A DNA stretch of 64,000 nt from an uncultured Chryseobacterium sp. (lineage in GTDB: Bacteria; Bacteroidota; Bacteroidia; Flavobacteriales_F; PHOS-HE28). Both the position numbers and the translations under genes were made by a program. The stretch is from assembly GCA_964394425.1 (NCBI GenBank), contig CAYMXP010000002.1, positions 13,828 to 77,827 of the forward strand. The letters are read 5' to 3'. Below, piece by piece: positions 1 through 61,336 of the stretch. The notes under the pieces are model-generated. The model saw only the letters and a list, made by a program, of their open reading frames with translations, was not told the origin of the DNA and made no database searches. Each line of letters opens with the position of its first letter. The first letter of the stretch is position 1.

Positions 1-1
1 G

Positions 2-382
2 GCGCTGTATGCCCTGGGCACCTGGCACCTCTTCGGTGTGCATGTCAAAATGGACCGACGTGCCGCTGCCGGTTATCTGGAGCGTGCCTCATCCATGGGC
101 CATCCGGCCGCCGCGTATGACCTCGCCGTTTCCTATGAGAAAGGCGCCGGGGTATCGAGAGACAGGCACCGCGCGTTCAATCTGTACATGAAGGCCGCGC
201 TCCTTGGCGACCGCGATGCGAAGTATGAGGTCTGCCGGTGTTTCTACCACGGGATCGGCACGGCCAGGGACCGTGAAGCGGCGCAGGTATGGCTGGATGC
301 GTACCAACGTGGAAAGCAGGCTTCACGCACCGTGGCCAGGACCGGCATCGCTCAAGGCTGGCGTTCACGGATCGCCGCCTGA
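2..382 (+). CDS. Sel1-like tetratricopeptide repeat protein; 5' end cut by the window edge. The ORF tool's start at 38 is an internal GTG.
   Basis: Repeated Sel1-type motifs: 'AAAGYLERASSMGHPAAAYDLAVSYEKGAGVSRD', 'AFNLYMKAALLGDRDAKYEVCRCFYHGIGTARD'. The reading frame is open from position 2. Confidence 0.55.
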   Translation, partial: ALYALGTWHLFGVHVKMDRRAAAGYLERASSMGHPAAAYDLAVSYEKGAGVSRDRHRAFNLYMKAALLGDRDAKYEVCRCFYHGIGTARDREAAQVWLDAYQRGKQASRTVARTGIAQGWRSRIAA

Positions 383-1603
383 TCGCAGCACCTCGGCCGC
401 CGCCGCTTTGATCGCCGCGATCACCTCATCCACCTGCGTGTCGGCGAGGTCGTAGTACACCGGCAGGCTGATCTCGCGCGCATAGTGTTCGTAGCTGCGC
501 GGAAAGTCCTCGATGCGATAGCCCATGCCCTTGTAGACGCTCAGCATCGGCATGGGCATGAAGTGGACGTTGACGCTCACCTCCCGCTTCGCGATGGCGG
601 CGATGATGGCGTCGCGTTGCGCTTCGGTGGCGCCGGCGATGCGCAACATGTAGAGGTGGTAACTGCTTTCGCGTCGTTCATCGCGCAACGTTGGGACAAT
701 GGAACGCGGATCGCCGGCGAACGCGGCCTGGTAACGCTCGCAGATCGCCTTGCGCCGTGGCAGCGTCTCGCGGTCGTAGCGCTCCAGTTCCACCATGCCG
801 ATGGCCGCCTGCAGGTCGGTCATGTTGCATTTGAAGCCGGCCATGATCACGTCGTAGCGCCACGCGCCGGGCTGCGTCTTGGCGAGCGCGTCCTTGCTCT
901 GGCCGTGCAGGCTCATGGTGTTGAAGTGCGCGTAGAGCGCCGCGTTGTCGAACGGCGGGGGCATGTTCAACGCCAGCGCGCCACCCTCGGCCGTGGTCAG
1001 GTTCTTCACCGCGTGGAAGCTGAAGCCGGTGATGTCGGCCTGCGTTCCCACCTTCCTTCCACCGATGGTGGCGCCGAAGGAATGCGCGGCGTCGGAGAGC
1101 ACGAGCACTCGGCCCAACACGCGCTGGTTGTCGGTTGTCGGTTGTCGGTTGTCGGTCGCACGAAATTTCCCGCGCGCTTCCTCCGCGATGCGCATGATCG
1201 CCGGCACGTCGGCGGGCAGGCCGCCGATGTCCACGGGGATGATGCACTTGGTGCGCGGCGTGATCGCCTTGCGCACGGCATCGGGATCGATCGTGAAGTC
1301 GTCGAGGATGTCGACCATGACCGGCTTCGCGCCGCAGTGCACCACGATGTTGGCCGTGGCGCAATAGCTGTACGCCGGAACGATCACTTCATCGCCCGGT
1401 CCGATGCCGAACCACCGCAGCACCAGTTCGGCGGCGTTGGTCCAGCTGTTCAGCGCGATCACGTTCCGCACGCCGCAGTATTCCGCAAGCCGCTTCTCGA
1501 ATTCCTTGGTGCGCGGTCCGGTGGTGATCCAGCCCGAACGCAGCGCCTCCTCCACGGCCTTCACCGTGCGGTCGTCGATGCGGGGAGGGGAGAAGGGGAT
1601 CAT
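365..1603 (-). CDS. DegT/DnrJ/EryC1/StrS-family PLP-dependent sugar aminotransferase.
   Basis: Conserved family segments across the 412-aa ORF: 'DEVIVPAYSYCATANIVVHCGAKPVMVDI', 'LSDAAHSFGA', 'GFSFHAVKNLTTAEGGAL'. It carries an insertion encoded by a heptanucleotide repeat. Confidence 0.85.
   Translation of the reverse strand: MIPFSPPRIDDRTVKAVEEALRSGWITTGPRTKEFEKRLAEYCGVRNVIALNSWTNAAELVLRWFGIGPGDEVIVPAYSYCATANIVVHCGAKPVMVDILDDFTIDPDAVRKAITPRTKCIIPVDIGGLPADVPAIMRIAEEARGKFRATDNRQPTTDNQRVLGRVLVLSDAAHSFGATIGGRKVGTQADITGFSFHAVKNLTTAEGGALALNMPPPFDNAALYAHFNTMSLHGQSKDALAKTQPGAWRYDVIMAGFKCNMTDLQAAIGMVELERYDRETLPRRKAICERYQAAFAGDPRSIVPTLRDERRESSYHLYMLRIAGATEAQRDAIIAAIAKREVSVNVHFMPMPMLSVYKGMGYRIEDFPRSYEHYAREISLPVYYDLADTQVDEVIAAIKAAAAEVLRSGGDP
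1126..1153. repeat. Perfect heptanucleotide tandem repeat (GGTTGTC)x4 inside the DegT coding sequence. On the coding strand it is GACAACC, encoding 'TDNRQPTTDNQ'.
   Basis: Read directly from the sequence: ggttgtcggttgtcggttgtcggttgtc at 1126-1153. Confidence 0.9.
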
Positions 1604-1696
1604 GGCGATCGGAGGATCAGAAGGTCAGACGCCTCCGCGAAGACGCTTCGGCGTCCAAAGGATGACCAGAGAATGGGAATGCCGGCTTCGGAACGA

Positions 1697-2950
1697 TCAT
1701 GACCGGCGAAGATCGGCTTCGCGGCCCGTCCAGGAGAGGATCAACACCATGAAGGAAAAGAACACCACGCCGGCCTGGACCTCCAGCATGCTCTCCACCG
1801 TCCAGTTGGCGGCGGTGATCAGCAGGAAGAGCACCGCGAAGGGATCGCGCCACGAGAAGATCGCTGGAAAGATGATCATCGCCAGCAGGACGAGGAGCGC
1901 CGGGATGCCCAGGCAGGCCGCGGTCTGCAGGAACTGGTCGTGCGCGTTGAGGCGGTGGGACTCCGCGCCCGTGTAGCCGCGTGCATGGTAGGCGCGCACC
2001 AGTTCATCCTTGATGTCGCCGGTGCCGGTGCCGGCCAGTGGATCCCGTTCGATCAGGTCCAGGGCCGTGCTCCAGGTCAGGCGGCGCACCTCGCTGCTGG
2101 TCACCGTGGCGTCATCGGCATGGCTCGACGTGGTGGCGCGCCACATTTCGCGCACGCGGTCCCAGGCATAGGGCGAGAGCACCACCAGCGCCAGCAGCGC
2201 GATGGCCGACGCGCCGGCGAAGCACAGCAGCGTGCCGCGCATGGCGCGATCACGCCACCGAAGGACGATCAGGACGATGAACAGCGCGCCGAGCAACAGC
2301 CAGCCGATCTTCGATCCGCAGAGCACCACGCCCAGGCAGAGGATCGCGAGCATCGCGCGCGAGGCGGAGGCCGGAAGCCAGCGGTCCACCGGCGGAAGGC
2401 ACCACGCGGCGATGGCGGTGAGCAGATACATGGCGAAGTAGCTCGGGTGCAGGAAGAGCGACCAGCGCGAGCTGAAGATCTCCTGCGCCGCGGAGTGGTC
2501 CGAGCCCTTGATCACGCGAACCGTAGCGGCGAGGATGCAGATGATCACGGCGACCGCATTGCCGAGCGCGAACACGAACAACAGCGGTCCGCGCCCAACG
2601 CGCACCTCGGTCCTGAGCGCCATGGCCAGCAGTGGCAGCACGAACAGGGTGGCCTTCACCTGCAGGTCGAACCAGCCGAAGGCGGTGTTGCTGGTCCAAA
2701 GCATGCCGGCCAGGTGAAGGAGGTACAGGAGGATGGCGTAGGGCAGGGGAGAGCGCCATTCCACGGCCGGCCCCTGGAGATGCCCGCGCCGGAAGACCAG
2801 GGCGATCACCGTGGCGGCGGTGGCCCAGGGAAGCATGGCGGGAGCGAGCACAAGGCTTGCGGAGAGGATCAGGAGGAGGCATGCCGCGGGCCATCCATGC
2901 ACGATGAGGAGATCGGCGAATGCGGTGTGAAGGCTCGTGCGCGCGTTCAT
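1697..2950 (-). CDS. Wzy_C-family polytopic membrane protein (O-antigen polymerase or ligase).
   Basis: About 10 predicted TM helices. Family motifs 'GSKIGWLLLGALF' and 'NAHDQFLQTAACLGIPALL'. Start codon overlaps the stop of the downstream GT4 gene (ATGA). Confidence 0.7.
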   Translation of the reverse strand: MNARTSLHTAFADLLIVHGWPAACLLLILSASLVLAPAMLPWATAATVIALVFRRGHLQGPAVEWRSPLPYAILLYLLHLAGMLWTSNTAFGWFDLQVKATLFVLPLLAMALRTEVRVGRGPLLFVFALGNAVAVIICILAATVRVIKGSDHSAAQEIFSSRWSLFLHPSYFAMYLLTAIAAWCLPPVDRWLPASASRAMLAILCLGVVLCGSKIGWLLLGALFIVLIVLRWRDRAMRGTLLCFAGASAIALLALVVLSPYAWDRVREMWRATTSSHADDATVTSSEVRRLTWSTALDLIERDPLAGTGTGDIKDELVRAYHARGYTGAESHRLNAHDQFLQTAACLGIPALLVLLAMIIFPAIFSWRDPFAVLFLLITAANWTVESMLEVQAGVVFFSFMVLILSWTGREADLRRS

Positions 2951-5270: not shown

Positions 5271-5305
5271 GGACGGATGGTCCCGGCGAAGATCGCGGTT
5301 GGCTC

Positions 5306-7006
5306 TCACGCCCGGGGGAGGTGCCCGGCCGCGGCGCGAAGCCGGCGCATCACCCCGTCGTGATCGTCGGCCCGTACCACGTGGGCGTCCTCGGCACGCC
5401 ACCACAGCCGGTCGCGCGCGGCCTCGTCCGGGCACAGGATGGACGCGGAGAAGAAGGCCGCCAGCTGCGCGATGGCACCGCCGCGCCCGTCGAAGGCGAT
5501 CACCACCGGCGCCGAACAGCACATCACCGTGAGCAGGGCGGCCCCTGGATCATGGCGAACGATGACGACGTCGGGCCGTGCGCGGTGCAGGGCGCGTTTC
5601 AGGCGGCGCCGCTCCATCAGCGAGCCCGATCGCAGCCGTATGGAGAGCGTAGATGATCCCTCCACCGGGCCGGTGCGCCCGCCGGACACCACCTCCACCA
5701 TCCGCGGGTGGTCGGCTCCCGTGGCGGCCAGGCGGTCCAGTTCGGAGCGCACGAAGCGCACATCGCGCCAGGTGGCCCAGCCCAACCACCACAGGGCGAT
5801 CACCATCACCACCGCCATGGTGTACGGCGGGGTGGGCACCACCAGGTGCAGCAACGCGCCGGCCAGCATGATGCCGAAGGCCTTGAGCAGGTTCAAGCCG
5901 TTGCGCGGCGTATGGTGGTAGGCGTCGAGCACGCTGCGCATGCCGAAGAAATAGCCGAAGGGCAGGGCACCGAGGAAGCACAGCCTGCTGATGAAGAGGT
6001 AGCTCCCGGCCGCATCGCCGATGTACGCGCTCAACAACGGGCCGGCGAGCACTTCGAAGCCGAGCATCAATGCCGCGCCCGATCCGATCATCCAGTGCGA
6101 GAGGCGCCCGATGCCCGCCGAAAGTCCGGCGTGGTCGCCGGCCGCCAGTTTTTCGGATGCCGCCGGCAGCAGCAGCAGCGCCACCGGATTGAAAACGGCC
6201 GAGGCCAGGTTGAGCAGCGTGGCACCGAAGCCCACCTGTCCGCCCAGGTCCGCCCCGAAGGTGCGCACCGCCACGTACACCGGCACGGTGAGCAGCGCGC
6301 CCATGGCCACGTCGCCCGGCACGCGCGGCAGCCCGAAGCGCAGCAGCCGGGCACGCTCCACGCGCAACCGCATGGGCGTGCGACCCAGCAGCAGCGCGGC
6401 GATGAGGACCAGCGGAACGGCGATCCAGCCCCAGGCGGTGGCCCAGAGGATCGGGCGCAGGTCGTCGAACAGGAAGAACGACGCGCAGGGGATCGCCGCG
6501 AGCACCGCCACCTGGGCGGCGTTCGCCACGGCGCCCAGGCCGGCGCCCCGCAATTGCGCGTAGGTCATGCCGTGCAGTCCGATGCCGGCGATCATCACCC
6601 CGAGCGGCGGGATCAGTGCGGCACCCGTCGCATCGCCGAAGACGATCCATGAGAGCTCCTCCGGGAGGAGGAGGCCGGCGCAGATCACCAGCGCCGACAG
6701 CGGCAGCACCCAGGTGAGCGCGGCGGCGAGGTAGCGGCGGCGCTCGTCGGGCGAGCCGGTCATGGCCACGAAGCGCGTGAGGCTGATGGCCGCGCCCAGC
6801 AGCAGCACGGGGAAGAGAAAGGACACCGTGCGGCGCACGATCACATAAGAGCCCAGGTCGGCATCGCCGCGCAGGGCGGCCAGCCGGTAGGCGTACACCA
6901 TGCCCAGCATCGCCAGGCCCTCGGCGGCCAGGGTGAGCAGGGCATCGCGTCCCCGCGGCGTGCGCAAACGGCCGATCATGGCCGCCGAAAGTAGCCGAAG
7001 GCCCAC
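5306..7006 (-). CDS. Wzx-like MOP-superfamily polysaccharide flippase carrying a ~150-aa C-terminal cytoplasmic extension that resembles the N-terminal half of a GT4 glycosyltransferase.
   Basis: N-terminal ~400 aa contain 12+ hydrophobic helices typical of polysaccharide biosynthesis/flippase proteins. The C-terminal 'LKRALHRARPDVVIVRHDPGAALLTVMCCSAPVVIAFDGRG' resembles a Glyco_trans_4-like N-terminal domain. Confidence 0.6.
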   Translation of the reverse strand: MGLRLLSAAMIGRLRTPRGRDALLTLAAEGLAMLGMVYAYRLAALRGDADLGSYVIVRRTVSFLFPVLLLGAAISLTRFVAMTGSPDERRRYLAAALTWVLPLSALVICAGLLLPEELSWIVFGDATGAALIPPLGVMIAGIGLHGMTYAQLRGAGLGAVANAAQVAVLAAIPCASFFLFDDLRPILWATAWGWIAVPLVLIAALLLGRTPMRLRVERARLLRFGLPRVPGDVAMGALLTVPVYVAVRTFGADLGGQVGFGATLLNLASAVFNPVALLLLPAASEKLAAGDHAGLSAGIGRLSHWMIGSGAALMLGFEVLAGPLLSAYIGDAAGSYLFISRLCFLGALPFGYFFGMRSVLDAYHHTPRNGLNLLKAFGIMLAGALLHLVVPTPPYTMAVVMVIALWWLGWATWRDVRFVRSELDRLAATGADHPRMVEVVSGGRTGPVEGSSTLSIRLRSGSLMERRRLKRALHRARPDVVIVRHDPGAALLTVMCCSAPVVIAFDGRGGAIAQLAAFFSASILCPDEAARDRLWWRAEDAHVVRADDHDGVMRRLRAAAGHLPRA

Positions 7007-7101: not shown

Positions 7102-7548
7102 ATGGACTTCTTTTTCGAATGGCACTGGTGGGCGGGCGCGGCGCTGGTGCTGCTGATCGCCGAGATCTTCGTGCCGGGCTTCTTCCTGCTCTGCCTGGGC
7201 ATCGGTTGCGCGGGCGGCAGCGTGGCGGCCTGGGCCGGTGCCGGCGAGGGCGGCCAGCTGATCGCCTTCAGCATCGTGGCGCTCATCTCCTTCTTCACCA
7301 TCCGCCCGCTGTTGATGAAGAAGTTCTGGAAGGACGGCGGCACCAGGACCAACGTGGACGCGCTGCTGGGCCGCCGCGCGAAGGTGACGCAGGATTTCGA
7401 GCCCTCCCTGCGCCTGGGCCGCGTGGCCATCGACGGCGACGACTGGCGCGCCGAATGCACCACCGACCGCGCGCTGCGCCAGGGCGACATCGTCGAGATC
7501 GTCCGCGTGGACAGCAACACCCTGATCGTGAAACCCATCGAGCCCTGA
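7102..7548 (+). CDS. NfeD-family membrane protein, the usual partner of SPFH/stomatin proteins.
   Basis: Two N-terminal TM helices followed by a C-terminal OB-fold-like segment 'LGRRAKVTQDFEPSLRLGRVAIDGDDWRAECTTDRALRQGDIVEIVRVDSNTLIVKPI'. Immediately upstream of an SPFH gene. Confidence 0.75.
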   Translation: MDFFFEWHWWAGAALVLLIAEIFVPGFFLLCLGIGCAGGSVAAWAGAGEGGQLIAFSIVALISFFTIRPLLMKKFWKDGGTRTNVDALLGRRAKVTQDFEPSLRLGRVAIDGDDWRAECTTDRALRQGDIVEIVRVDSNTLIVKPIEP

Positions 7549-7568
7549 TCGATCGCGGATCGAACCGC

Positions 7569-7665
7569 CAACTGCGAACTGCCAACCGCCAACTGCCAAC
7601 TGCAAACTGCAAACTGCAAACTGCCAACTGCCAACTGCCAACTGCCAACTGCCAACTGCCAACTC
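7569..7665. repeat. Heptanucleotide tandem repeat of ~13 units (AACTGCC, with AACTGCA/AACTGCG/AACCGCC variants) between the NfeD stop and the SPFH start codon.
   Basis: Sequence: caactgcg aactgcc aaccgcc aactgcc aactgca x3 aactgcc x5 aactcc, ending 3 nt before the ATG at 7669. Confidence 0.9.
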
Positions 7666-7668
7666 CTC

Positions 7669-8667
7669 ATGAGCCCCTCCACCATCATCCTCGTCCTCCT
7701 CGCGCTCTTCGTCATCTTCATCATCGCCAAGGGCCTGCGCATCATCCAGCAGAGCGAAGCCATGGTGATCGAGCGCCTGGGCAAATACCACAAGACGCTG
7801 CAGCCGGGCATCAACATCATCATCCCCATCGTGGACAAGCCGCGGGAGATCGTCTTCCGCTTCACGCGCGACCTGCCCGACGGCAACAAGTACGTGCAGT
7901 TCCTGCGCAAGGAGCGGCTCGACCTGCGCGAAACGGTCTACGACTTCCCCCGCCAGAACGTGATCACCAAGGACAACGTGATGACGGAGATCAACGCCCT
8001 GCTCTACTTCCAGATCACCGACCCGGTGAAGGCGATGTACGAGATCGAGAACCTGCCCCTGGCCATCGAGAAGCTCACGCAGACCACCCTGCGCAACGTG
8101 ATCGGCGAACTGGACCTCGACGAGACCCTTACCAGCCGCGACACGATCAACATGAAGCTGCGGCAGATCCTGGACGAGGCCAGCAACAAATGGGGCGTGA
8201 AGGTGAACCGCGTGGAACTGCAGGACATCAACCCCCCGCGCGACATCCGCGAGGCGATGGAGAAGCAGATGCGCGCCGAACGCGACCGCCGCGCGCAGAT
8301 CATCGACGCCGAAGGCGGCAAGCGCGCCCAGATCCTGCAGGCCGAGGGCATCCAGCAGGCGCAGATCACCCAGGCCGAGGGCCAGAAACAATCGCAGATC
8401 CTGGAGGCCGAGGGCGACGCGCAGGCCCGCATCCGCCGCGCGCAAGGTGAGGCGGAGGCCATCACGCTGGTCACCAAGGCCATCACGGGAGGCAGGAGCG
8501 ATCCGTCCAGCTACCTCATCGCCATGAAGTACCTGGAGACCCTCAAGGAGATGACCAGCGGCAAGGACAACAAGGTGATCTACATCCCCTACGAAGCCAC
8601 CGGCGTGCTCAGCAGCGTGGGCGGGATCAAGGACATGCTGGACGCGGGGCGGGCGATGAACAAGTGA
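7669..8667 (+). CDS. SPFH/Band-7 (stomatin/HflC-like) protein with a C-terminal coiled-coil of repeats.
   Basis: N-terminal TM segment, then the SPFH core 'IIQQSEAMVIERLGKYHKTLQPGINIIIPIVDK…FPRQNVITKDNVMTEINALLYFQITDPVKAMYEI'. C-terminal repeats 'AQIIDAEGGKRAQILQAEGIQQAQITQAEGQKQSQILEAEG'. Confidence 0.9.
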   Translation: MSPSTIILVLLALFVIFIIAKGLRIIQQSEAMVIERLGKYHKTLQPGINIIIPIVDKPREIVFRFTRDLPDGNKYVQFLRKERLDLRETVYDFPRQNVITKDNVMTEINALLYFQITDPVKAMYEIENLPLAIEKLTQTTLRNVIGELDLDETLTSRDTINMKLRQILDEASNKWGVKVNRVELQDINPPRDIREAMEKQMRAERDRRAQIIDAEGGKRAQILQAEGIQQAQITQAEGQKQSQILEAEGDAQARIRRAQGEAEAITLVTKAITGGRSDPSSYLIAMKYLETLKEMTSGKDNKVIYIPYEATGVLSSVGGIKDMLDAGRAMNK

Positions 8668-42744: not shown

Positions 42745-44576
42745 GGCTTCGCCGTCAGATCGCCGCGCAGCAGGTGGCCGTTGAATTGCTGGATGGCGGC
42801 TTTCAACCAGGGCTCCATGTCCCGCGTGGGCGCGTCGGCCGCGGTCGCCGGTGGTGGAAGCACATGCTCGCCATCGAACTTCAACTGCCGCCGGCCGCTG
42901 CCGATCGCCATGTAGATGCTGTTGCTCGAGCTGATCGCGATCGGTGGACGATCAGCCTGAAGCACGCTGTGCCCGAAGCTGAAGAAGCGCCCGTGGTGGC
43001 CGATCAGATGGAGCACCGTGGGAAGGATGTCGATGTGCTGCACCACGCGATCGTCCGCACCGGGTTCGATGCGCTCCGGCATGTAGAAGAGCAGCGGCAC
43101 CCAGTAGTCACGTTCGTCGCGGACCAGCTGCCCGTCGCGCTTCAGGTCGGCCGTGTGGTCGGCGGTGATCACGAACAGTGTGTTGCGGAACCACTTCGAG
43201 CCGCGAACCGTCGCGAAGAACCGTCGCAGGGCATCATCCGCGTATCGCAGGGTGGGTTCGATCCGGTGATCGCCGCCGGCGAAGCGGGCCGCCACGGGGT
43301 CGGGAAGCTTGTAGGGGTGATGCGAGGTGAGCGTGAACAACGTGCTGAAGAAGGGCTGTTGTTCCTTCTGGAGTTCCTGCGCGAAGAATTGCAGGAAGGG
43401 CCGGTCGAGGACGCCCCAGGTGCCGTCGTCGTCCGACCGGTCCGGGTATTCATCGTAGCCCACGTAGCGTTCGATGCCCGCCTGCCGCGCGAAACCATCG
43501 AAGCCCATCGTGCCGTTGTGCCCGCCGTGGTAGAAGCTGGTGCGATACCCCTCTTCCTTCAGCACGCCTGGCAACGAGGTGAAGGGCAGTTGCGCATAGC
43601 GCGATGCGACGAACGCCTCGTTCATGAGTTCCGGCAGCGAAGCGAGGATCGCCGGCAGGCCATCGATGCTCCGTCGGCCGTTCGCATAGGCATGCTCGAA
43701 ATTGAGCCCGGTGCCCATCAACGAGTCGAGGAAAGGCATGCACCTGCCCGCGTGGCCGGACAGCCGTTCGCTGTACGCAGCGGAAAAACTCTCCAGGATG
43801 ATCACCACCACGTTGGGTCGTGCGCCGGCGATCGCGCTGTCGGCGAACTGGTGGATGACCGGCCACAGGCGATCGGCTTCCTCCTGGCTCATGTAATGCC
43901 TTTCCGACAGGGCCGGCTTGCCCAGGCCGTGGAAGAACGTGAAGGCCGAGTTAAGGACCAGGGGTGAATACGCCGCATCGGCGTAGCGCGTGGCGGTCGC
44001 CGGGCCGATGGGCACCAGCTGAAGTCCGCCGCGCCATAGCACGGCCATCAACGCGACGACCATGGCGCGCCAGGACCACCGCCGCCAGCCGGCCGCCGCG
44101 CCCGTTGCACGGCCGCTCCAACGCCAGAGCAGCTCGGCGAGCACGAGGCAGGCGATGAAGATCGCGGCGACATGCCAGAACTCGACAAGGAACCCCCCGG
44201 CCAGGTGCCGCAGGTCCGTGCCCGCCGTGCCGATGGTGAGCAGGTCGCTGGTGCTGCGCTTGAGCGTGAACCTGTAGTATTCGATGTCGACGGCGTTGAG
44301 AAAGAAGCCGATCGCGTTGCCCAGGTGGAAGAGCGGGCGTTGCGTGACCGCGGCCCATCGCGAGGGGGATGGCCACATCAGAAAAAGCGTGATCCACGGG
44401 ATGTTCAGCCAGGCGATGGCCACCAGGTCGAACCTCATCCCGCCGAGGAATGCGCTGAACGGCGCGGAGGGGAAGCTGTCCTGGTTGAGCGCCCAGAACG
44501 CCAGCCGGAGCAGCGAATGGATCAGGGCCAGCCCGGCCAGGCGTGCGAGCACTACGGACAATGGACCGCGCAGCAT
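42741..44576 (-). CDS. LTA-synthase/sulfatase-family membrane-anchored phosphotransferase (LtaS/OpgB-like, alkaline-phosphatase superfamily).
   Basis: N-terminal TM helices, then 'RPNVVVIILESFSAAYSERLS' and 'NTLFVITADH'. Start ambiguous: 44576 vs 44642. Its stop overlaps the DAGK start. Confidence 0.75.
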   Translation of the reverse strand: MLRGPLSVVLARLAGLALIHSLLRLAFWALNQDSFPSAPFSAFLGGMRFDLVAIAWLNIPWITLFLMWPSPSRWAAVTQRPLFHLGNAIGFFLNAVDIEYYRFTLKRSTSDLLTIGTAGTDLRHLAGGFLVEFWHVAAIFIACLVLAELLWRWSGRATGAAAGWRRWSWRAMVVALMAVLWRGGLQLVPIGPATATRYADAAYSPLVLNSAFTFFHGLGKPALSERHYMSQEEADRLWPVIHQFADSAIAGARPNVVVIILESFSAAYSERLSGHAGRCMPFLDSLMGTGLNFEHAYANGRRSIDGLPAILASLPELMNEAFVASRYAQLPFTSLPGVLKEEGYRTSFYHGGHNGTMGFDGFARQAGIERYVGYDEYPDRSDDDGTWGVLDRPFLQFFAQELQKEQQPFFSTLFTLTSHHPYKLPDPVAARFAGGDHRIEPTLRYADDALRRFFATVRGSKWFRNTLFVITADHTADLKRDGQLVRDERDYWVPLLFYMPERIEPGADDRVVQHIDILPTVLHLIGHHGRFFSFGHSVLQADRPPIAISSSNSIYMAIGSGRRQLKFDGEHVLPPPATAADAPTRDMEPWLKAAIQQFNGHLLRGDLTAKP

Positions 44577-44632
44577 CACGGCGAAGATGGCGCGAACACG
44601 GCCAACGGCCTCCCTGTACTTTCGCGGCCGCG

Positions 44633-46648
44633 ATGCCCACACTGACCACCGAGGACCTCCAGACGCGCTTCCAGAAGGGGAACCTCACCGACGCCTTCCT
44701 GTTGAAGACCCATGAGCTTCTCGTCCGTCCGCGGATGATCGAGGAGAAGATGCTCAGCCTGCTGCGGCAAGGCAAGATCAGCAAGTGGTTCAGCGGCATC
44801 GGGCAGGAGGCCATCAGCGTGGGCGCGGCCATGGTGCTGCGCGACGACGAGTACATCCTGCCCATGCACCGCAACCTGGGCGTGTTCACCACGCGCGGCA
44901 TGCCCTTCACCAGGCTCTTCGCGCAATGGCAGGGCAAGGCCACCGGCTTCAGCAAGGGCCGCGAGCGCAGCTTCCACTTCGGCAGCAAGGAGCACCGGGT
45001 GGTGGGCATGATCAGCCACCTCGGCCCGCAGATGGGCATCGCCGACGGCATCGCGCTGGCGCACAAGATGAAGAAGGAGGCCCGCTGCACGATCGTCTTC
45101 ACCGGCGACGGCGCCACCAGCGAGGGCGACTTCCACGAGAGCGTGAACGTGGCCGCGGTGTGGGACCTGCCCGTGCTTTTCATCATCGAGAACAACGGCT
45201 ATGGCCTCAGCACGCCCAGCCGGGAGCAGTTCCGCATGAGGAGCTTCGTGGACAAGGCCGTGGGTTACGGGATCGAAGGCGTGCAGGTCGCCGGCAACAA
45301 CATCCTGGAGGTGTACAACACCCTGGCGAAGCTGGCCGATCGCGTGCGCGAGAACCCGCGGCCGGTCCTGGTGGAGTGCGTCACCTTCCGCATGCGCGGG
45401 CACGAGGAGGCCAGCGGCACCAAATACGTGCCCAAGGAATTGTTCGAGGAGTGGGGGAGGAAGGACCCCGTGGTGAATTATGAGAACTGGCTGTTGAAAG
45501 AGGGCGTTCTCAGCGAGAAGGTGAAGGGCGATGTCCGCGACGCGATCAAGCAGGAGATCGAGGAGGGGCTGAAGGTGGCCTTCGATGAGCCGGAACCGGT
45601 GCCGGTGAAGGAGGTGGAGGAGGGGGATGTGTATGCGCCACAAGCTTCAGGCTTCAAGCCTCAAGCTTCAAACCCGACGGTGCGGAAGAGCGAGAAACGT
45701 TTCATCGACGCGATCAGCGACGGCATGGCGCAGAGCATGGAGCGTCACCCGAACCTCGTGCTCATGGGCCAGGACATCGCGGAGTACGGCGGGGCCTTCA
45801 AGATCACCGAGGGTTTCGTGGAGCGCTTCGGGAAGGAGCGCGTGCGGAACACGCCGCTGTGCGAGAGCGCGATCATCGGCGCGGGGCTCGGCCTCAGCAT
45901 CAAGGGCATGAAGGCGATGGTGGAGATGCAGTTCGCCGACTTCGTGAGCGAGGGCATGACCCAGATCTGCAACAACCTGGCGAAAATGCACTACCGCTGG
46001 GGGCAGAACGCCGACGTGGTGGTGCGCATGCCCACCGGCGCGGGCGTGGGCGCGGGGCCCTTCCACAGCCAGAGCAACGAGATGTGGTTCGTGAAAACGC
46101 CGGGCCTGAAAGTGGTCTACCCCGCGACCGTCCACGACGCGAAGGGCCTGCTCATGGCAGCCTTCGACGATCCCAACCCGGTGATCTTCTTCGAACACAA
46201 GGCGCTCTACCGCAGCATCACGGAGAGCATCCCCGACGAGCCCTACACCGTGCCGATCGGCAAGGCGCGCGTGGCGCGTGAGGGCCATGCGATGAGCATC
46301 ATCACCTACGGCATGGGCGTGCACTGGGCGCTGGAAGCCGTGAAGGAGGCCGCCGTGGACGCCGAGATCATCGACCTCCGCACGCTCCTACCCATGGACA
46401 CCGAGGCGATCTACGCCAGCGTGCGCAAGACCGGTCGCGCACTGGTGTTGCACGAGGACACGCTCACGGCCGGTCTGGGCGGCGAGATCAGCGCGTTGAT
46501 CACCGAACATTGTTTCGAAAGCCTCGACGCGCCGGTGATGCGCGTGGCCAGCTGGGATACGCCCGTGCCTTTCGCCATACCGCTGGAGCAGGGCTTTCTG
46601 GCGAAGGGGAGGGTGAAGGAGGCGATCGTCAAGCTGGCGGAGTACTAG
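44633..46648 (+). CDS. Fused alpha-beta 2-oxoacid dehydrogenase E1 component, TPP-dependent.
   Basis: Alpha part 'IVFTGDGATSEGDFHESVNVAAVWDLPVLFIIENNGYGLSTP' (TPP motif GDG…N). Beta part 'RNTPLCESAIIGAGLGLSIKGMKAMVEMQFADF…YTVPIGKARV'. Confidence 0.9.
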   Translation: MPTLTTEDLQTRFQKGNLTDAFLLKTHELLVRPRMIEEKMLSLLRQGKISKWFSGIGQEAISVGAAMVLRDDEYILPMHRNLGVFTTRGMPFTRLFAQWQGKATGFSKGRERSFHFGSKEHRVVGMISHLGPQMGIADGIALAHKMKKEARCTIVFTGDGATSEGDFHESVNVAAVWDLPVLFIIENNGYGLSTPSREQFRMRSFVDKAVGYGIEGVQVAGNNILEVYNTLAKLADRVRENPRPVLVECVTFRMRGHEEASGTKYVPKELFEEWGRKDPVVNYENWLLKEGVLSEKVKGDVRDAIKQEIEEGLKVAFDEPEPVPVKEVEEGDVYAPQASGFKPQASNPTVRKSEKRFIDAISDGMAQSMERHPNLVLMGQDIAEYGGAFKITEGFVERFGKERVRNTPLCESAIIGAGLGLSIKGMKAMVEMQFADFVSEGMTQICNNLAKMHYRWGQNADVVVRMPTGAGVGAGPFHSQSNEMWFVKTPGLKVVYPATVHDAKGLLMAAFDDPNPVIFFEHKALYRSITESIPDEPYTVPIGKARVAREGHAMSIITYGMGVHWALEAVKEAAVDAEIIDLRTLLPMDTEAIYASVRKTGRALVLHEDTLTAGLGGEISALITEHCFESLDAPVMRVASWDTPVPFAIPLEQGFLAKGRVKEAIVKLAEY

Positions 46649-54991: not shown

Positions 54992-57784
54992 ATGCATACC
55001 TCGAAGATCATGCTCCTGCCCGCGTCGATCCTGTGGGCAGCGGCCCATGCCCAACCCGGCGCGCTCGACCCCACCTTCGGCAGCGGTGGGAAAGTGCTGA
55101 CCGACATTGGCTACGGCAACGTCCGGTTCGACCCGGTGGTCGTGCAGCCAGATGGGCGCATCGTAAGCGCCGGCGGGACGGAGTACCTCTACTCCATATG
55201 GGGCTGTTTTACGTTGATGCGCCACAACATCGATGGAACCCTGGACAGTGGTTTTGGGAACGGGGGCATCGTGTCCACCAACCTCAACGCGGGCGATCCA
55301 GGGTGGAACAGCTATGTGGGCAACAACAGCAAAGTGACCGACCTGGCTCTGTTGCCCGATGGCCGCTTGCTCGCCGTGGGCAGGTCGTTCACGGTCGTCA
55401 GTGGCAGCGGGTGGAACCGACTGGCCATGGCGCGCTACCTCACGGATGGGAGCCTCGATCCCTCATTCGGCACGAATGGCTGGCTGGTGGACCTTGGTCT
55501 GAATTGCTTGGATGCATACGTTGCATTGATGGATGACGGTCGCTTCGTGGTGGCCGCCGCACATGGCTCTGGAGAGTTCCATGTGCTGCGCTACAACGCC
55601 GATGGCACGCCCGATGCCAGCTTCGACGGTGACGGGCACATCACCCATCAGGTGGGAACGGGAGGGAACACGGTCTGCGGAACGGGAATACTGGCGGATG
55701 GACGGATCGTCGTGGGTGGGAGTGTCTACAATGGCACCGATGATGATGCGTACCTGGTGCGGTTCGATGCCGATGGAGCCGTGGACAGCACATACAATGG
55801 GACCGGTGTGATCACTTCGGCTCCCGGGATCTACGAAGACCTGCTGAACGACATGATCGTGCATGATGATGGGACCGTGATCGCGGTCGGTTCCACCGTT
55901 CTCACAACATGGGTCACCCAGTGGTTCCTGCAACGTTACCTGCCCGACGGCACGCCCGACCCCGGCTTCGGGACCGGTGGGACGGTGATCCACGAGATCG
56001 GCCCCGATGGTGGCGATCTGCAAGCCGTGGCGGAGCGTTCGGACGGAGAGATCATCGTCACTGGATCTCGCGTTGTGGTCGGCGGGGGGAGTTCCGAACA
56101 GCTCTCGGCTGCCTTCACCGCCCAGGGAGTGCTGGACATCGCCTATGGCGCGGGGGGCTACTGCGTCTTCAACTTCGCACCGGATGTGCTGTATCCGGGC
56201 GGGATCGCCTTGGGCGTGAACGACCAGGCCGCGGTTGCCGGCTCGGTTTCCATCGATGGTATGAATTGGATCTACGAGGCGGGTGTGGTCAGCATCTCGT
56301 CGAACGGCACGCTTGATCCCGTGTTCAATGGAACCGGCTTTACCGTGCAGAACTCGGGGATCGGCGGCGACCTCGGGCACGCGGTGGCCAGGCAACCGGA
56401 TGGGAAACTCCTGGTCGCGAGCGAAACACAGATGGACGGAGCCACCCATGCAGTCGTGACCCGCTATCTCTCCGACGGGTCCATCGATCCAAGCTTCGGC
56501 ACCAATGGAAGCGCGCAACTGCCGTCAAACAGACCGCTCTGCATCGCCGTGCAGCCCGACGGCAAGATCCTGATCGGGATCGATTACATGTTCACCATTT
56601 ACCGCTTGAACGGCGACGGCACCATCGACCTTGGCTTCAATGGCCTGGGCTTTGTCACCATCATGGACTTCCTCGGAAGCAACAACATCGGTGCCGTGCG
56701 CGGCATCGCCGTGCAACCCGATGGCAAGGTCGTGGCCGCTGGTTTCGCGGGCATTGTTGGAATCGACAAGTCCTTCGCACTGGCCCGCTTCAACCCCGAT
56801 GGATCCCTGGACCCCGGATTCGGCGGGGATGGCAAGGTGGTCACGGATCTGATGTTCGGCCTTTGGGAGGAGATCGATGACATGGCCTTGATGCCCGATG
56901 GCCGGATCGTGGTGACCGGCTACGCCGAGACCGCCGAGGGATTCGTGGTCGCGCGGTATGAGCCCGACGGCGATCTCGATCCCACCTTCGGTGGCGGCGA
57001 TGGGATCATCAACCATACGGTCACGGGATATTGGACCCAGTCGAAGCGGATCGACTTGCGCACCGATGGACGGATCCTGCTGGCCGGCTACGCGCAGGAG
57101 GACTTGGATCCGTCCAACTTCGACATCGCCCTGATGCAGTTGCTTGCCAACGGGTCGCTCGATGCGAGCTTCGGCACGGGCGGCAAGGTGATCATGGACA
57201 TCGGTGCCACGATGCAGGAGATCACGGGCCTGGTGTTGCAGGCCGATGGCAAGGCCCTCGTGGCCGGCTACGCCATCTTCGGCGGCAATGACGACTTCGT
57301 GCTGCTGCGTTACGGCATCGACGGTCAACTGGACAATTCCTTCGGCACGGGCGGGGTGGTCACCACCGACTTCGGCCCCTACGCGGAGCGCGGCCACGAC
57401 CTGCTGATCCAGCCCGATGGCAAGGCCGTGGTGGTGGGGTTCGCTGTAACGCAGAGCGACCTCGACATCGCATTGGCCCGCTACGACTTGGGGACGATCA
57501 TCGGAGTGCCCGATCTGCCCGCACCCGCACCCGATCTGCAGGTGTGGCCTTCGCCACTCGCGCCATCCTCCGTGGCGTCCTACACGCTTGCCATGCCCGC
57601 ATCGGTCAACATGGGGCTCTTCGACGCGCAAGGCCGCCTCGCGCTCGAACTGCTTTCCGGCGAACGGATGCCGATGGGCACACACCGGATCTCCCTGGCC
57701 GGGGCACAGCGGCTGTCGCCCGGCCCCTACACGCTGGTCCTGCGCACCGCGGAGGGCGCCGCCAAGGTGATGTTGGTGCGTTGA
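54992..57784 (+). CDS. Delta-60-repeat beta-propeller protein with a T9SS C-terminal sorting domain (copy 1, 930 aa).
   Basis: Signal peptide 'MLLPASILWAAAHAQ'. About 14 repeats of ~60 aa, each starting 'G(S/T)LDP(S/T)FG(T/G)(N/G)G' (e.g. 'GALDPTFGSGGKV', 'GSLDPSFGTNG', 'GSIDPSFGTNG', 'GSLDASFGTGG'). T9SS-type tail 'PYTLVLRTAEGAAKVMLVR'. Confidence 0.8.
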   Translation: MHTSKIMLLPASILWAAAHAQPGALDPTFGSGGKVLTDIGYGNVRFDPVVVQPDGRIVSAGGTEYLYSIWGCFTLMRHNIDGTLDSGFGNGGIVSTNLNAGDPGWNSYVGNNSKVTDLALLPDGRLLAVGRSFTVVSGSGWNRLAMARYLTDGSLDPSFGTNGWLVDLGLNCLDAYVALMDDGRFVVAAAHGSGEFHVLRYNADGTPDASFDGDGHITHQVGTGGNTVCGTGILADGRIVVGGSVYNGTDDDAYLVRFDADGAVDSTYNGTGVITSAPGIYEDLLNDMIVHDDGTVIAVGSTVLTTWVTQWFLQRYLPDGTPDPGFGTGGTVIHEIGPDGGDLQAVAERSDGEIIVTGSRVVVGGGSSEQLSAAFTAQGVLDIAYGAGGYCVFNFAPDVLYPGGIALGVNDQAAVAGSVSIDGMNWIYEAGVVSISSNGTLDPVFNGTGFTVQNSGIGGDLGHAVARQPDGKLLVASETQMDGATHAVVTRYLSDGSIDPSFGTNGSAQLPSNRPLCIAVQPDGKILIGIDYMFTIYRLNGDGTIDLGFNGLGFVTIMDFLGSNNIGAVRGIAVQPDGKVVAAGFAGIVGIDKSFALARFNPDGSLDPGFGGDGKVVTDLMFGLWEEIDDMALMPDGRIVVTGYAETAEGFVVARYEPDGDLDPTFGGGDGIINHTVTGYWTQSKRIDLRTDGRILLAGYAQEDLDPSNFDIALMQLLANGSLDASFGTGGKVIMDIGATMQEITGLVLQADGKALVAGYAIFGGNDDFVLLRYGIDGQLDNSFGTGGVVTTDFGPYAERGHDLLIQPDGKAVVVGFAVTQSDLDIALARYDLGTIIGVPDLPAPAPDLQVWPSPLAPSSVASYTLAMPASVNMGLFDAQGRLALELLSGERMPMGTHRISLAGAQRLSPGPYTLVLRTAEGAAKVMLVR

Positions 57785-57829
57785 CGTGTTCGATGAGGGG
57801 CGGTACGCTGCGTGCGTCGCCGAAATCCA

Positions 57830-58423
57830 TCAGGGATGCATCACACGGAGGATCGGCGTTCCATCGGTGGCGTCGCGCACCAGGTAAAGGCCGGGCGGAG
57901 CGAGGTGGTACGCACCGTCCAGTTCCGCAGGGGTGCCATGCGCGAGCGATCGCCCTTGCGGATCGATCAGTACGAGCCCCGGCAGGCCCGGGGGCAGCAC
58001 CTCCGACAAGCGATCGGCGATCGCGACGCGTGATGCCGTCCGGAAGGAGGAAGGTGCCTCGTTCACGTGCGTGGTGGCATCCGTGCTGAACGCCGTGAGC
58101 GAGATCTCGGTGTGCTTGTTGAGGATGTTGAGCGTGTCGAAGGTGGCGGCGGAAAGCACGAAGAGCGTTTCGCCTGTAAGCGCCGTGGCGTGCAGGATGT
58201 CGTGTGTGTTGGTGACAGCGTCGTTGAATAGGAAATGCGTTGCGATCGTGCCGTCGGAACCATCGAAGCGGCTCACCTCGATGTCCTGCCCGATCGTTCC
58301 AGCAGTTCGATGCCCGAGACGCGCGGCATGCGGATGTCCAGGAAGACCACGGCCAGCGGCGGAATGCCGGATGAGCACAGAGATCCCATGGACGGACCTC
58401 GCAGGCCATTTCGAACATGACAT
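57830..58423 (-). pseudogene. Chimeric ORF at the duplication junction. The 5' ~35 codons derive from the LytTR-regulator gene and are fused in frame to the last ~165 codons (T9SS C-terminal domain) of the 61337-62857 gene.
   Basis: The ORF 'MSCSKWPARSVHGISVLIRHSAAGRGL…' continues as 'IGQDIEVSRFDGSDGTIATHFLFNDAVTNTHDILHATALTGETLFVLSAATFDTLNILNKHTEISLTAFSTDATTHVNEAPSSFRTASRVAIADRLSEVLPPGLPGLVLIDPQGRSLAHGTPAELDGAYHLAPPGLYLVRDATDGTPILRVMHP'. That stretch is ~95% identical to the C-terminus of the 506-aa protein. Confidence 0.6.
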
Positions 58424-58510
58424 GGGTCATGCGGTATCCAGCGAGCGGTTCATTATTTTTCATGCCCGTTCTTTTCCCGGCCTTCCAGTGTTGCACCAAC
58501 CAACGGAACA

Positions 58511-61291
58511 ATGCATACCTCGAAGATCATGCTCCTGCCCGCGTCGATCCTGTGGGCAGCGGCCCATGCCCAACCCGGCGCGCTCGACCCCACCTTCGGC
58601 AGCGGTGGCAAAGTGCTCACCGACATTGGCTACGGCAACGACTTTTTCGATCCGGTGGTCGTGCAGACCGATGGAAGGATCGTGAGCGCCGGCGGCACGG
58701 AAAACGCTTTGGGGGGGTGCTTCACCTTGATGCGTCACAACACGGACGGGAGCCTGGACAGCGGTTTTGGAGGGGATGGCATCGTGTCCACCAACGTCAA
58801 TGCGGGCGATCCGGGTTGGCACACCTATGTGGGCAATTACAGCCGCGCCACCGATCTGGCCCTGCTGCCCGACGGTCGCGTGCTGGCCGTGGGCCGGTCG
58901 TTCACGATGATCAGCGGGATCGGAGTGAACCGACTGGCCATGGCGCGCTACCTCCCCGATGGCAGCCTCGATCCCACCTTCGGAACGGACGGCTGGTCGG
59001 TGGATCTGGACGTGGCCATCCTCGATGCCTTCGTGGCAGTGATGGATGATGGCCGTTTTGTGATCGCCGCCGCACTTGGGTTCGGAGATTTCCACGTGCT
59101 GCGCTACAACGAGGACGGTACGCCGGACATGAGCTTCGCCGGCATCGGCCACATCACCCATCAGGTGGGAACGGGAGAGAACACGGTCCGCGGAACGGGA
59201 ATACTGGCGGATGGACGGATCGTCGTGGGTGGGAATGTCTTCAATGGCACCGATGATGATGCGTACCTGGTGCGGTTCGATGCCGATGGAGCCGTGGACA
59301 GCACATACAATGGGACCGGTGTGATCACTTCGGCTCCCGGGATCTACGATGACCTGCTGAACGACATGATCGTGCGTGACGATGGGACCGTGATCGTGGT
59401 GGGCACCACCGTTCCCACGCCGTGGACCCAGCAATGGTTGCTGCAACGGTATCTGCCCGATGGTTCACCGGACCCCACGTTCGCCGGCACCGGCACCCTG
59501 GTCCATGAGGTCACCGTGGATGGCGGCGACCTGCAGGCGGTCGTTGAGCGTTCCGATGGTGAACTCATCGTCGCGGGATCGCGCTATTGGGGAGGGAGTT
59601 CTGAAGCGGTGACGGCCGCGTTCACGGCTTCGGGAGCGTTCGATGCCGCTTATGGCGCCGGTGGCTACTGCGTCCCACCGTTCACGCCCGATGTGTTCTA
59701 CCCTGGTGCGATCGCACTGGGATCGAACGATCAGGTGGCGGTGGCGGGCGGTTTCTCGATCGACGGCATGATGAACGTCATCGCTGTTGGGGTGGTCAGC
59801 ATCACCACCGCTGGCCTGCTCGATCCGGCGTTCAATGGCACCGGCTTCACCGTGCAGAACTCGGGGATCGGCGGCGACCTCGGGCACGTGGTGGCCAGGC
59901 AACCGGATGGAAAACTCCTGGTCGCGAGCGAAACGCAGATGGGCAGCATGGTCCAGGTGATGGTGACCCGCTACCACGCCGACGGATCCATCGATCCGAC
60001 CTTCGGGGTCAACGGAACCGCGCAGGTGCCGGGCACAAGGCCGGCAAGCATCGCCCTACAGCCCAATGGCGGGATCCTGATCGGCGACGCGTTCATGTTC
60101 ACCCTTTCCCGCTTGAACAGCGACGGCACCATCGACCTTGGCTTCAATGGTCTGGGCGTCGTCACCATCATGGACTTCCTCGGTAGCAACAACTTCGGCG
60201 CCGTGCGCGGCATCGCCGTGCAGCCCGATGGCAAGATCGTGGCCGCAGGTTTCGCGGGCCTGGTCGGATCCGACAAGTCCTTCGCACTGGCCCGCTTCAA
60301 CCCCGATGGATCCCTGGACCCCGGATTCGGCGGGGATGGCAAGGTGGTCACGGATCTGATGTTCGGCCTTTGGGAGGAGATCGATGACATGGCCTTGATG
60401 CCCGATGGCCGGATCGTGGTGACCGGCTACGCCGAGACCGCCGAGGGATTCGTGGTCGCGCGGTATGAGCCCGACGGCGATCTCGATCCCACCTTCGGTG
60501 GCGGCGATGGGATCATCAACCATACGGTCACGGGATATTGGACCCAGTCGAAGCGGATCGACTTGCGCACCGATGGACGGATCCTGCTGGCCGGCTACGC
60601 GCAGGAGGACTTGGATCCGTCCAACTTCGACATCGCCCTGATGCAGTTGCTTGCCAACGGGTCGCTCGATGCGAGCTTCGGCACGGGCGGCAAGGTGATC
60701 ATGGACATCGGTGCCACGATGCAGGAGATCACGGGCCTGGTGTTGCAGGCCGATGGCAAGGCCCTCGCGGCGGGCTACGCCATTTTCGGCGGCGTGGACG
60801 CCTTCGTGCTGCTGCGTTATGACATCGCCGGGGCGTTGGACCCGGCCTTTGGCACGGGTGGGGTGGTCACCACCGACTTCGGTCCCTACGCGCAGCGCGG
60901 CCACGATCTGCTGATCCAACCCGATGACAAGGCGGTGGTGGTGGGTTTCGCGGTGACGCAGAGCGATCTCGACATCGCATTGGCCCGCTACGACCTGGGG
61001 ACGATCATCGGAGTGCCCGATCTCCCCGCACCCGCACCCGATCTGCAGGTGTGGCCTTCGCCACTCGCGCCATCCTCCGTGGCGTCCTACACGCTTGCCA
61101 TGCCCGCATCGGTCAACATGGGGCTCTTCGACGCGCAAGGCCGCCTCGCGCTCGAACTGCTTTCCGGCGAACGGATGCCGATGGGCACACACCGGATCTC
61201 CCTGGCCGGGGCACAGCGGCTGTCGCCCGGCCCCTACACGCTGGTCCTGCGCACCGCGGAGGGCGCCGCCAAGGTGATGTTGGTGCGTTGA
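58511..61291 (+). CDS. Delta-60-repeat beta-propeller protein with a T9SS C-terminal sorting domain (copy 2, 926 aa).
   Basis: The first ~40 aa and last ~330 aa are (near-)identical to copy 1; the central repeats have diverged. Confidence 0.8.
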   Translation: MHTSKIMLLPASILWAAAHAQPGALDPTFGSGGKVLTDIGYGNDFFDPVVVQTDGRIVSAGGTENALGGCFTLMRHNTDGSLDSGFGGDGIVSTNVNAGDPGWHTYVGNYSRATDLALLPDGRVLAVGRSFTMISGIGVNRLAMARYLPDGSLDPTFGTDGWSVDLDVAILDAFVAVMDDGRFVIAAALGFGDFHVLRYNEDGTPDMSFAGIGHITHQVGTGENTVRGTGILADGRIVVGGNVFNGTDDDAYLVRFDADGAVDSTYNGTGVITSAPGIYDDLLNDMIVRDDGTVIVVGTTVPTPWTQQWLLQRYLPDGSPDPTFAGTGTLVHEVTVDGGDLQAVVERSDGELIVAGSRYWGGSSEAVTAAFTASGAFDAAYGAGGYCVPPFTPDVFYPGAIALGSNDQVAVAGGFSIDGMMNVIAVGVVSITTAGLLDPAFNGTGFTVQNSGIGGDLGHVVARQPDGKLLVASETQMGSMVQVMVTRYHADGSIDPTFGVNGTAQVPGTRPASIALQPNGGILIGDAFMFTLSRLNSDGTIDLGFNGLGVVTIMDFLGSNNFGAVRGIAVQPDGKIVAAGFAGLVGSDKSFALARFNPDGSLDPGFGGDGKVVTDLMFGLWEEIDDMALMPDGRIVVTGYAETAEGFVVARYEPDGDLDPTFGGGDGIINHTVTGYWTQSKRIDLRTDGRILLAGYAQEDLDPSNFDIALMQLLANGSLDASFGTGGKVIMDIGATMQEITGLVLQADGKALAAGYAIFGGVDAFVLLRYDIAGALDPAFGTGGVVTTDFGPYAQRGHDLLIQPDDKAVVVGFAVTQSDLDIALARYDLGTIIGVPDLPAPAPDLQVWPSPLAPSSVASYTLAMPASVNMGLFDAQGRLALELLSGERMPMGTHRISLAGAQRLSPGPYTLVLRTAEGAAKVMLVR

Positions 61292-61336
61292 CGTGTTCGA
61301 TGAGGGGCGGTACGCTGCGTGCGTCGCCGAAATCCA

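Follow-up and report, generated by a model that had tools for sequence, protein, structure and literature searches.

The window (the whole stretch of DNA that was analysed, 64 kb) carries a sugar aminotransferase gene with a heptamer tract inside its coding sequence. The features of the locus are the following:

365..1603, minus strand: intact gene of a putative Spr1654-like sugar 4-aminotransferase of the DegT/DnrJ/EryC1/StrS family, 412 aa (from the ORF, PF01041, PDB 6EWJ and an AF2 model)
1109..1165, minus strand: variable surface segment F147..R165 (FRATDNRQPTTDNQRVLGR; from an alignment of 120 homologues, the model, the Spr1654 paper and the arrays of relatives)
1126..1156, minus strand: perfect heptanucleotide array (from TRF, the sequence, the codon layout and a chance test)
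1082..1093, minus strand: codons of D171-A-A-H174, with the PLP-contacting Asp and His (from invariant columns and His173 of Spr1654)
1004..1006, minus strand (ctt on the plus strand): AAG codon of K200 in FSFHAVKN, the predicted PLP Schiff-base lysine (from the Spr1654 alignment)

The 412-aa product was matched by Pfam PF01041 at 331.6 bits (cut-off 19.8, E=8.2e-99), in two stretches split at the loop, while none of the NCBIfam equivalogs scored above its cut-off. The nearest solved structure was that of Spr1654 from S. pneumoniae (PDB 6EWJ; E=1e-114, about 45% identity), and the AF2 model of the protein (pLDDT 87.8, pTM 0.89) superposed on 6EWR with a TM score of 0.91 and on ArnB with a score of 0.81. 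Model and alignments agreed on a type-I aminotransferase fold with the PLP lysine and the Asp and His of the SDAAH motif. Residues D171, H174 and K200 were invariant among 53 homologues, as were the columns of A172 and A173. K200 aligned to Lys199 of Spr1654, which is bonded to PLP and lies in the FSFHAVKN motif (PMC5936713), and H174 to His173. Spr1654 is a putative 4-aminotransferase that would convert UDP-4-keto-6-deoxy-GlcNAc into UDP-AATGal, the product with which the teichoic-acid repeat unit starts (PMC5936713), and it is essential in S. pneumoniae. The window protein shares with Spr1654 (PDB 6EWJ/6EWQ/6EWR) both the PLP residues and the surface insertion of the subfamily, and we regard it as a putative Spr1654-like UDP-sugar 4-aminotransferase, whose substrate we infer.

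The assignment of the gene to a glycan locus, made in an initial annotation of the sequence, was borne out by its neighbours. Within the window these are the genes of a Wzy_C protein and of two glycosyltransferases of family GT4; some 0.7 kb downstream of the aminotransferase gene, just beyond the window edge but still on its contig (L001), follows the gene of a Bac_transf (PF02397) initiating transferase. A Bac_transf gene was also found directly 3' of the aminotransferase gene in L004, L093, L095 and L176-L180. As in the Spr1654-like subfamily, the gene is thus linked in the genome to an initiating sugar-phosphate transferase, which would use the amino sugar.

The heptamer tract and the loop in which it lies

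TRF reported a period of 7 with 4.4 copies and 100% matches at 1126..1156, with the unit GGTTGTC on the plus strand, where the letters read ctg, four times GTTGTCG, then gtcgca. The perfect 7-bp repeat first described within the DegT ORF is therefore present, with an extent of 31 nt, and its unit is correct for the plus strand; the ORF however lies on the minus strand, and the coding unit is GACAACC. Read in that direction the tract is ACC(GACAACC)x4 (31 nt, CDS nt 448-478), with the first GACAACC at CDS nt 451, that is at codon 151. It encodes T150-D-N-R-Q-P-T-T-D-N159 within FRA-TDNRQPTTDN-QRVLGRVLVLSDAAHSFGA, and the peptide FRATDNRQPTTDNQRVLGRVLVLSDAAHSFGA had been read correctly.

In 200 Markov-1 versions of the 64-kb window, the longest perfect period-7 tract reached at most 23 nt (mean 15.4), as compared with the 31 nt of the real tract. 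The doublet GACAACCGACAACC occurs at a single site in the window, which is the tract. Two Logan contigs (SRR36123268 and SRR18853680) were 100% identical to the window across 4603 bp, tract included. The source is a metagenome assembly, which calls for general caution only; since three independent assemblies are identical, the tract is not an assembly artefact. Given that the simulated maximum is exceeded and that relatives from other, unrelated samples have homologous arrays, there is a negligible probability that the tract arose by chance or through an error of assembly or sequencing. The heptamer tract is thereby confirmed: it exceeds chance and recurs unchanged in each assembly.

The tract is accompanied in the window by two further heptamer arrays, one intergenic and one in a housekeeping gene. 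The intergenic array consists of 14.6 copies of AACTGCC/AACTGCA; it fills the spacer between the NfeD and SPFH genes, at 7563-7664, and ends 4 nt 5' of the SPFH start codon. No Rfam family was found in positions 1-9000 of the window, and hence there is no evidence of the tract or the intergenic array lying within a known RNA. The housekeeping array is located as follows:

45641..45671: heptamer array, 4.4 copies, 83% identity, in the linker of a fused 2-oxoacid dehydrogenase E1

This array is in frame and lies in the linker (QASGFKPQASN) between the E1_dh and Transket_pyr domains. A second array of about four units, placed where a linker can tolerate it and outside the surface genes, fits the expectation from a passive process, in which 7-nt slippage is combined with tolerance of the segment and with selection for the frame.

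When periods 5 to 11 were compared, period 7 was the most marked, with 3 tracts of at least 2.5 copies in the window against 0.03 expected; for period 6, there were 4 short tracts against 0.39. The presence of the other arrays, one of them in the linker of a housekeeping E1, argues for a genome-wide mutational habit. According to Mrazek 2007, as quoted in PMC4679880, heptanucleotides are the most abundant class of long SSRs in most genomes, and the same article mentions TAACTGA arrays in Beggiatoaceae, Cyanobacteria and Bacteroidetes. The window resembles these prokaryotic long heptamer SSRs in that period 7 is favoured, several arrays are present in one genome and one of them is intergenic and abuts a start codon. 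Reported long heptamer SSRs are however mostly intergenic and built on one conserved unit, whereas here the units vary, the site is coding and the frame is kept.

The segment F147..R165, in which the tract lies, is the counterpart of the 'insertion 150-164' of Spr1654, one of two insertions unique to that protein which lie together on its surface (PMC5936713). Both Spr1654-specific insertions (residues 150-164 and 212-217) are present in the window protein. The alignment to 6EWJ was unbroken over both, save where Spr1654 has 6 residues fewer, at those encoded by the repeat: the short loop of Spr1654 (FFTASSK-WQKAFNR) is without these six residues, and no DNA repeat has been reported for it. 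The tract had been thought to encode an extra loop relative to generic DegT enzymes. In favour of this, the Pfam and PseC HMM matches both break at residues 142/166, and the ArnB alignment has a 21-residue gap at the insert. About two thirds of the 'insert', however, is, as judged from the alignments, conserved throughout the Spr1654-like subfamily, and the repeat contributes only 6 additional aa, with 15 residues between F147 and the LGR motif against 9 in the short form. Among the matches listed, relatives with 47-61% identity from across Bacteroidota have this short form (F-x9-LGR). Metagenome relatives, again among the matches listed, were all at most 61% identical and all had the short loop; they were used as an outgroup, and L169 came from among them. 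In a large sister clade an insert of 7 additional aa (FTPKVN-LRVAGSN-PQMRLGR) is conserved, without DNA periodicity.

The prediction that the insert is a surface loop agreed with the AF2 model, where residues 147-158 form a coil (block pLDDT 65) matching the surface insertion of Spr1654. The coil is flanked by a helix (133-146) and by a short helix and strand (159-163/167-171), with pLDDT 94-96. Its placement beside the PLP lysine needs correction. SDAAH is the region of the PLP-contacting D171 and H174, and the Schiff-base lysine, K200, is found 29 residues beyond it.

Arrays at the same codon site in relatives

We compared the DNA of the closest homologues, which have 74-84% identity and come from MAGs named 'Flavobacteriales bacterium'. 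At the same codon site were found:

Window: ACC(GACAACC)x4, 31 nt, perfect
P0003: ACG(AACAACG)x4, 31 nt, perfect
P0017: AACAACC units, 27 nt, perfect
P0002: (AACAACG)x2 followed by (AGCAACG)x3, 25 nt, perfect
P0008: TTCACAC CTCACAC CTCACAC TTCACAC CTCACAG, i.e. (YTCACAC)x5, an unrelated unit, product FTPHTSHFTPHSS
P0005, P0007, P0016 and P0019: similar arrays, decayed, with a 27-nt insertion in addition in P0005
P0003 and P0019: a second small array, TTCGTKG x2.5, just upstream of the main one
L011 (short form): 2-unit proto-repeat, AACAGCG AGCAGCG
L169 (short form, 49% identity): (CCAGCAA)x3.4, 24 nt, perfect

The array-bearing relatives derive from unrelated samples. From lineage to lineage the arrays encode dissimilar peptides (TDNRQPT, NNEQRAT, EQPTTNN, TPHTSHF). 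A 7-nt period read over three frames yields no peptide repeat, so that selection on the protein cannot have produced the periodicity, which must be mutational. As far as the aligned sequences tell, at least three unrelated unit families have been acquired independently in one loop, the frame being kept at each net change. Direct repeats serving as a binding site for a regulator were considered and rejected, because the unit sequence varies between lineages.

At four-fold sites, loop excluded, the divergence of the window gene from its relatives ranged from 0.38 (P0002) to 1.06 substitutions per site. About six or more changes per lineage would be expected in a weakly constrained segment of 31 nt, and the perfect arrays therefore appear to be younger than the lineage splits, even the nearest. 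In a neighbour-joining tree built with the loop masked, array carriers were mixed among short forms. In none of 200 bootstraps did the sequences with arrays form a clade, and an array form and a short form were paired as sisters for P0019 with P0042 (194/200) and for P0017 with P0006 (176/200), P0042 and P0006 being the short members. The interspersed tree and the unrelated unit families together show that arrays have repeatedly and independently expanded, been lost or been re-homogenised at this one loop. The absence of monophyly, the unrelated unit families and the youth of the arrays relative to the splits speak against one ancestral insert that later decayed, and this reading was rejected. 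The comparison shows that, in one clade of Flavobacteriales MAGs with high GC content, the loop is a recurrent hotspot at which heptanucleotide arrays expand; within the Spr1654-like subfamily as a whole, the segment F147..R165 is, on the sequences aligned, the hotspot of indels and slippage.

A fixed insert devoid of repeats in related genomes had been named as an observation that would speak against switching. Such a state is approached in P0005 and P0007, where the repeats are decayed; the perfect, fresh arrays of other relatives, however, show that slippage continues on an evolutionary timescale.

The arrays also bear on whether the polar residues of the loop are themselves selected, tuning activity, stability or partner binding, with the DNA repeat as their mere origin. 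The sister clade conserves its 7 additional aa without DNA periodicity, so that an insert at this site can come under purifying selection, and the activity of NeuO, an O-acetyltransferase with a translated heptad array, reportedly increases with repeat number (PMC13001214). The peptides of the arrays are however unrelated between lineages, insert-free short forms are the sisters of array forms, the loop has low model confidence and matches a surface insertion, and Spr1654, a structurally characterised PLP-dependent aminotransferase, does without these residues. We consider selection on the peptide very improbable.

Frame effects, possible switching and probable slippage

The tract has the sequence properties of a phase-variable locus: the repeat is perfect, the length of its unit is not divisible by 3, and altered copy numbers can shift the frame. 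The predicted products for 1 to 7 units are 405, 303, 196, 412, 310, 203 and 419 aa, respectively, of which those of 1, 4 and 7 units (405, 412 and 419 aa) are in frame. As initially proposed, the gain or loss of one unit frameshifts the gene, 3 units giving 196 aa and 5 units 310 aa, and both products are without D171, H174 and K200. From the sequence, a one-unit change can be predicted to truncate the enzyme before its PLP-binding residues, and switching would be possible in principle. The tract could accordingly be a contingency locus of low frequency, in which slippage by one GACAACC unit turns the aminotransferase and the glycan that depends on its amino sugar OFF, reversibly; selection for this switchability would explain the continual reappearance of perfect arrays at the site. 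A surface-glycan locus with a Wzy-like protein, two GT4 enzymes and a Bac_transf is a typical home of phase-variable genes, and at least five lineages have kept or regenerated perfect or near-perfect arrays although their neutral divergence is 0.4-1.1.

The proven heptamer switches are longer. In the coding array (AAGACTC)n of NeuO, carried by the CUS-3 prophage of E. coli K1 and subject to phase variation, 3-53 heptads were counted (mode 20), the gene was OFF in 65.6% of 64 genomes, and about 7% of alleles were non-modal in culture (PMC13001214). The window tract resembles neuO as a 7-nt coding repeat in the gene of a surface-polysaccharide enzyme, translated, with a full-length product at every third copy number. 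It differs in that the neuO array is long and lies in the 5' region of the gene, whereas here there are 4.4 units in mid-gene (codon 151 of 412), with peptides that differ between lineages, and neither an OFF allele nor a copy-number variant in the available sequences. In H. influenzae, heptanucleotide SSRs are likewise tied to surface structures: the promoter tracts of hmw1A and hmw2A have 13-38 copies and vary between strains, and strain PittAA has (AATTTTG)14 inside hmw1a, associated with a frameshift (PMC2651432). Unlike the window tract, the H. influenzae tracts are mostly in promoters and modulate transcription, not the reading frame. A length of 4.4 units is above the threshold of at least 3 heptamer units used for candidate SSRs in H. 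influenzae (PMC2651432), which favours a contingency locus, but it is far under the 13-53 of proven switches. [quoted passage not shown] Null alleles arising by a one-unit change at 4.4 units would be rare.

The sequences available were searched for such alleles. All 12 alleles read as DNA were in frame (full-length protein matches being in frame by ascertainment), and 10 of the 12 carried arrays, of 3.4-5 units only; this contrasts with the OFF fraction of neuO. No copy-number or OFF polymorphism was present among the three identical assemblies, but the power to detect variants is low, the allele being present on just 4 contigs, each a consensus assembly. Variants of 405 or 419 aa were absent from the homologues, among which the next after the 100% match had 84% identity. 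A protein search with the N-terminal 159 aa returned nothing above 87% identity and no 196-aa product of a one-unit loss; its matches were all of at most 277 aa, with P0001 missing, so that the search was apparently length-banded, with 196 aa within its reach. With the 310-aa product of a one-unit gain as query, the best match was the intact P0001, and no OFF allele appeared. A scan of metagenomes for the flanks (TTTCGTGCGAC-N{7,37}-CAGCGCGTGTTGG) gave 0 matches, wild type included, indicating that the strain is absent from the collection.

Truncated relatives do exist. In P0121, P0123, P0124 and P0126, which lie on long contigs, the frame is lost farther downstream, at about residues 197-215, and not at an array; P0123 has in addition a short locally shifted stretch across the loop, after which it is back in frame. 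Three distant short-form fragments (P0138, P0140 and P0152) show, at the protein level, a shift within the loop region.

The claim that the repeat is the hallmark of phase variation was thus not upheld: the 12 alleles are in frame, the three assemblies are identical and the protein searches revealed no OFF allele. Together with the shortness of the tract, its position in mid-gene, the similar array of about 4.4 units in the dehydrogenase linker of the same window, and the several relatives that keep the insert while the array decays, this makes a contingency locus unlikely. The tract as a regulated or selected ON/OFF switch is unsupported.

We consider it probable that the tract is a young, slippage-born, in-frame microsatellite in a permissive surface insertion of a Spr1654-like aminotransferase, at a recurrent heptamer hotspot of the clade. 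Replication slippage would have created the tract recently on the evolutionary scale, in a genome that, like many others, may slip preferentially by 7 nt. Selection for an intact enzyme would then filter the outcomes, leaving only states that are in frame on balance (for this allele 1, 4 or 7 units), and the encoded peptide would have no function of its own. The tract would persist because it is in frame within a structurally permissive, surface-exposed coil.

Unit turnover in the arrays touches on this reading. Homogenising an array needs the gain or loss of units, and since single steps shift the frame, either rarer 3-unit steps or transient null alleles have to be supposed. Turnover by single steps would imply out-of-frame intermediates, the strongest point in favour of a contingency locus; transient null alleles are in themselves contingency-locus behaviour, and they count against the passive reading. 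A selected low-copy contingency site may also be envisaged for this clade of uncultured Flavobacteriales, where arrays are time and again regenerated in one permissive loop of the aminotransferase of an initiating amino sugar and rare slips switch the whole surface polysaccharide; we hold this to be quite unlikely. That the polysaccharide is switched off and on, for instance under phage pressure, is equally doubtful.

The phylum is better known for glycan switching by invertible promoters. Were the tract a true switch, SSR-mediated phase variation of glycans would extend to environmental Flavobacteriales, but the evidence so far is unfavourable. Coding non-triplet SSRs in glycan genes are of an already known kind, of which the window tract is another example. 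Annotators, and tools that predict phase variation from SSRs, should not infer a contingency locus solely from the presence of a perfect non-triplet repeat within a glycan gene; DNA comparisons with relatives are able to separate such a locus from a passive repeat. On the best-supported reading, that of an in-frame microsatellite born by slippage, a bias towards 7-nt slippage and a permissive surface insertion would jointly shape indel evolution in this aminotransferase.

The aminotransferase loop in related lineages

We compared the aminotransferase loop with the same site in other lineages (L176-L178, L169, L010 and L093) and found expansions of unrelated heptamer units. The homologous protein of loci L176-L178 (P0008), which is present on 17 contigs, is encoded with a (YTCACAC)x5 array whose first unit lies at the Phe codon of the loop, and L169, a 49%-identical relative, carries (CCAGCAA)x3.4 in the loop. 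Two further homologues (P0003 and P0019) have an additional small array, TTCGTKG x2.5, just upstream.

Several homologues were truncated. Three of them, found on long contigs (P0121, P0123 and P0126), share a common frameshift in the PPPF region, at about residue 215, and the out-of-frame tail is identical in P0121 and P0123. In three distant fragments with the short form of the loop (P0138, P0140 and P0152), the reading frame changes within the stretch that encodes the loop. Genuine pseudogenes and errors of sequencing are both possible explanations for these sequences.

Other reading frames around the glycan locus

38..382, plus strand: Sel1-repeat ORF, convergent with the aminotransferase ORF
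5306..7006, minus strand: 566-aa ORF within the glycan locus

The 3' ends of the aminotransferase ORF and of the convergent Sel1-repeat ORF overlap by 18 nt (window 365..382). A Pfam search with the 566-aa ORF at E<=0.001 gave no match. Judged by eye, the N-terminal half of its translation appears hydrophobic, and the protein may be a membrane protein of the flippase or polymerase type that has gone unrecognised.

Heptamer arrays elsewhere in the window

7102..7548, plus strand: NfeD-like ORF
7563..7664: heptanucleotide array, 14.6 copies
7669..8667, plus strand: SPFH/Band-7 ORF
44543..46648, plus strand: fused 2-oxoacid dehydrogenase E1 alpha/beta ORF
45641..45671: third heptamer array of the window, within the E1 ORF, 4.4 copies, 83% identity

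The array at 7563..7664 occupies the whole ~120-nt spacer between the NfeD-like and SPFH ORFs and ends 4 nt before the SPFH/Band-7 ATG. It is made of about seven perfect AACTGCC units and 3.9 copies of AACTGCA, with variants at the 5' end. It does not occur a second time within the 64-kb window, and an Rfam search of window 1-9000 returned no match to it. In Beggiatoaceae, Cyanobacteria and a few Bacteroidetes, TAACTGA arrays are known that lie immediately 5' of start codons (PMC4679880), and the present array resembles them in its placement and its AACTG core.

The third array (CAAGCTT CAGGCTT CAAGCCT CAAGCTT CAAAC) lies in frame within the coding sequence of an inter-domain linker, QASGFKPQASN. 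As the E1 dehydrogenase is a housekeeping gene, glycan genes are not the only ones with heptamer insertions in permissive segments.

Repeat periods across the window

Window 56500..62500 contains a pair of paralogous stretches spaced about 3.5 kb apart (86% identity over 300 nt). Both are internally repetitive, and their repeats, about 171-180 nt long, carry an RYxPDGxLDPTFG-like motif. The two stretches probably encode tandem paralogues of a secreted, repeat-rich protein, and they account for the occurrence of identical CCCGCA hexamer tracts at both 57518 and 61025.

When perfect tracts were counted over the whole 64 kb, with a minimum of 2.5 copies, 7 was the most prominent period among 5-11, with three tracts observed against 0.03 expected; for period 6, four short tracts were observed against 0.39 expected. 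These counts suggest that slippage in the genome as a whole is biased towards 7-nt steps.
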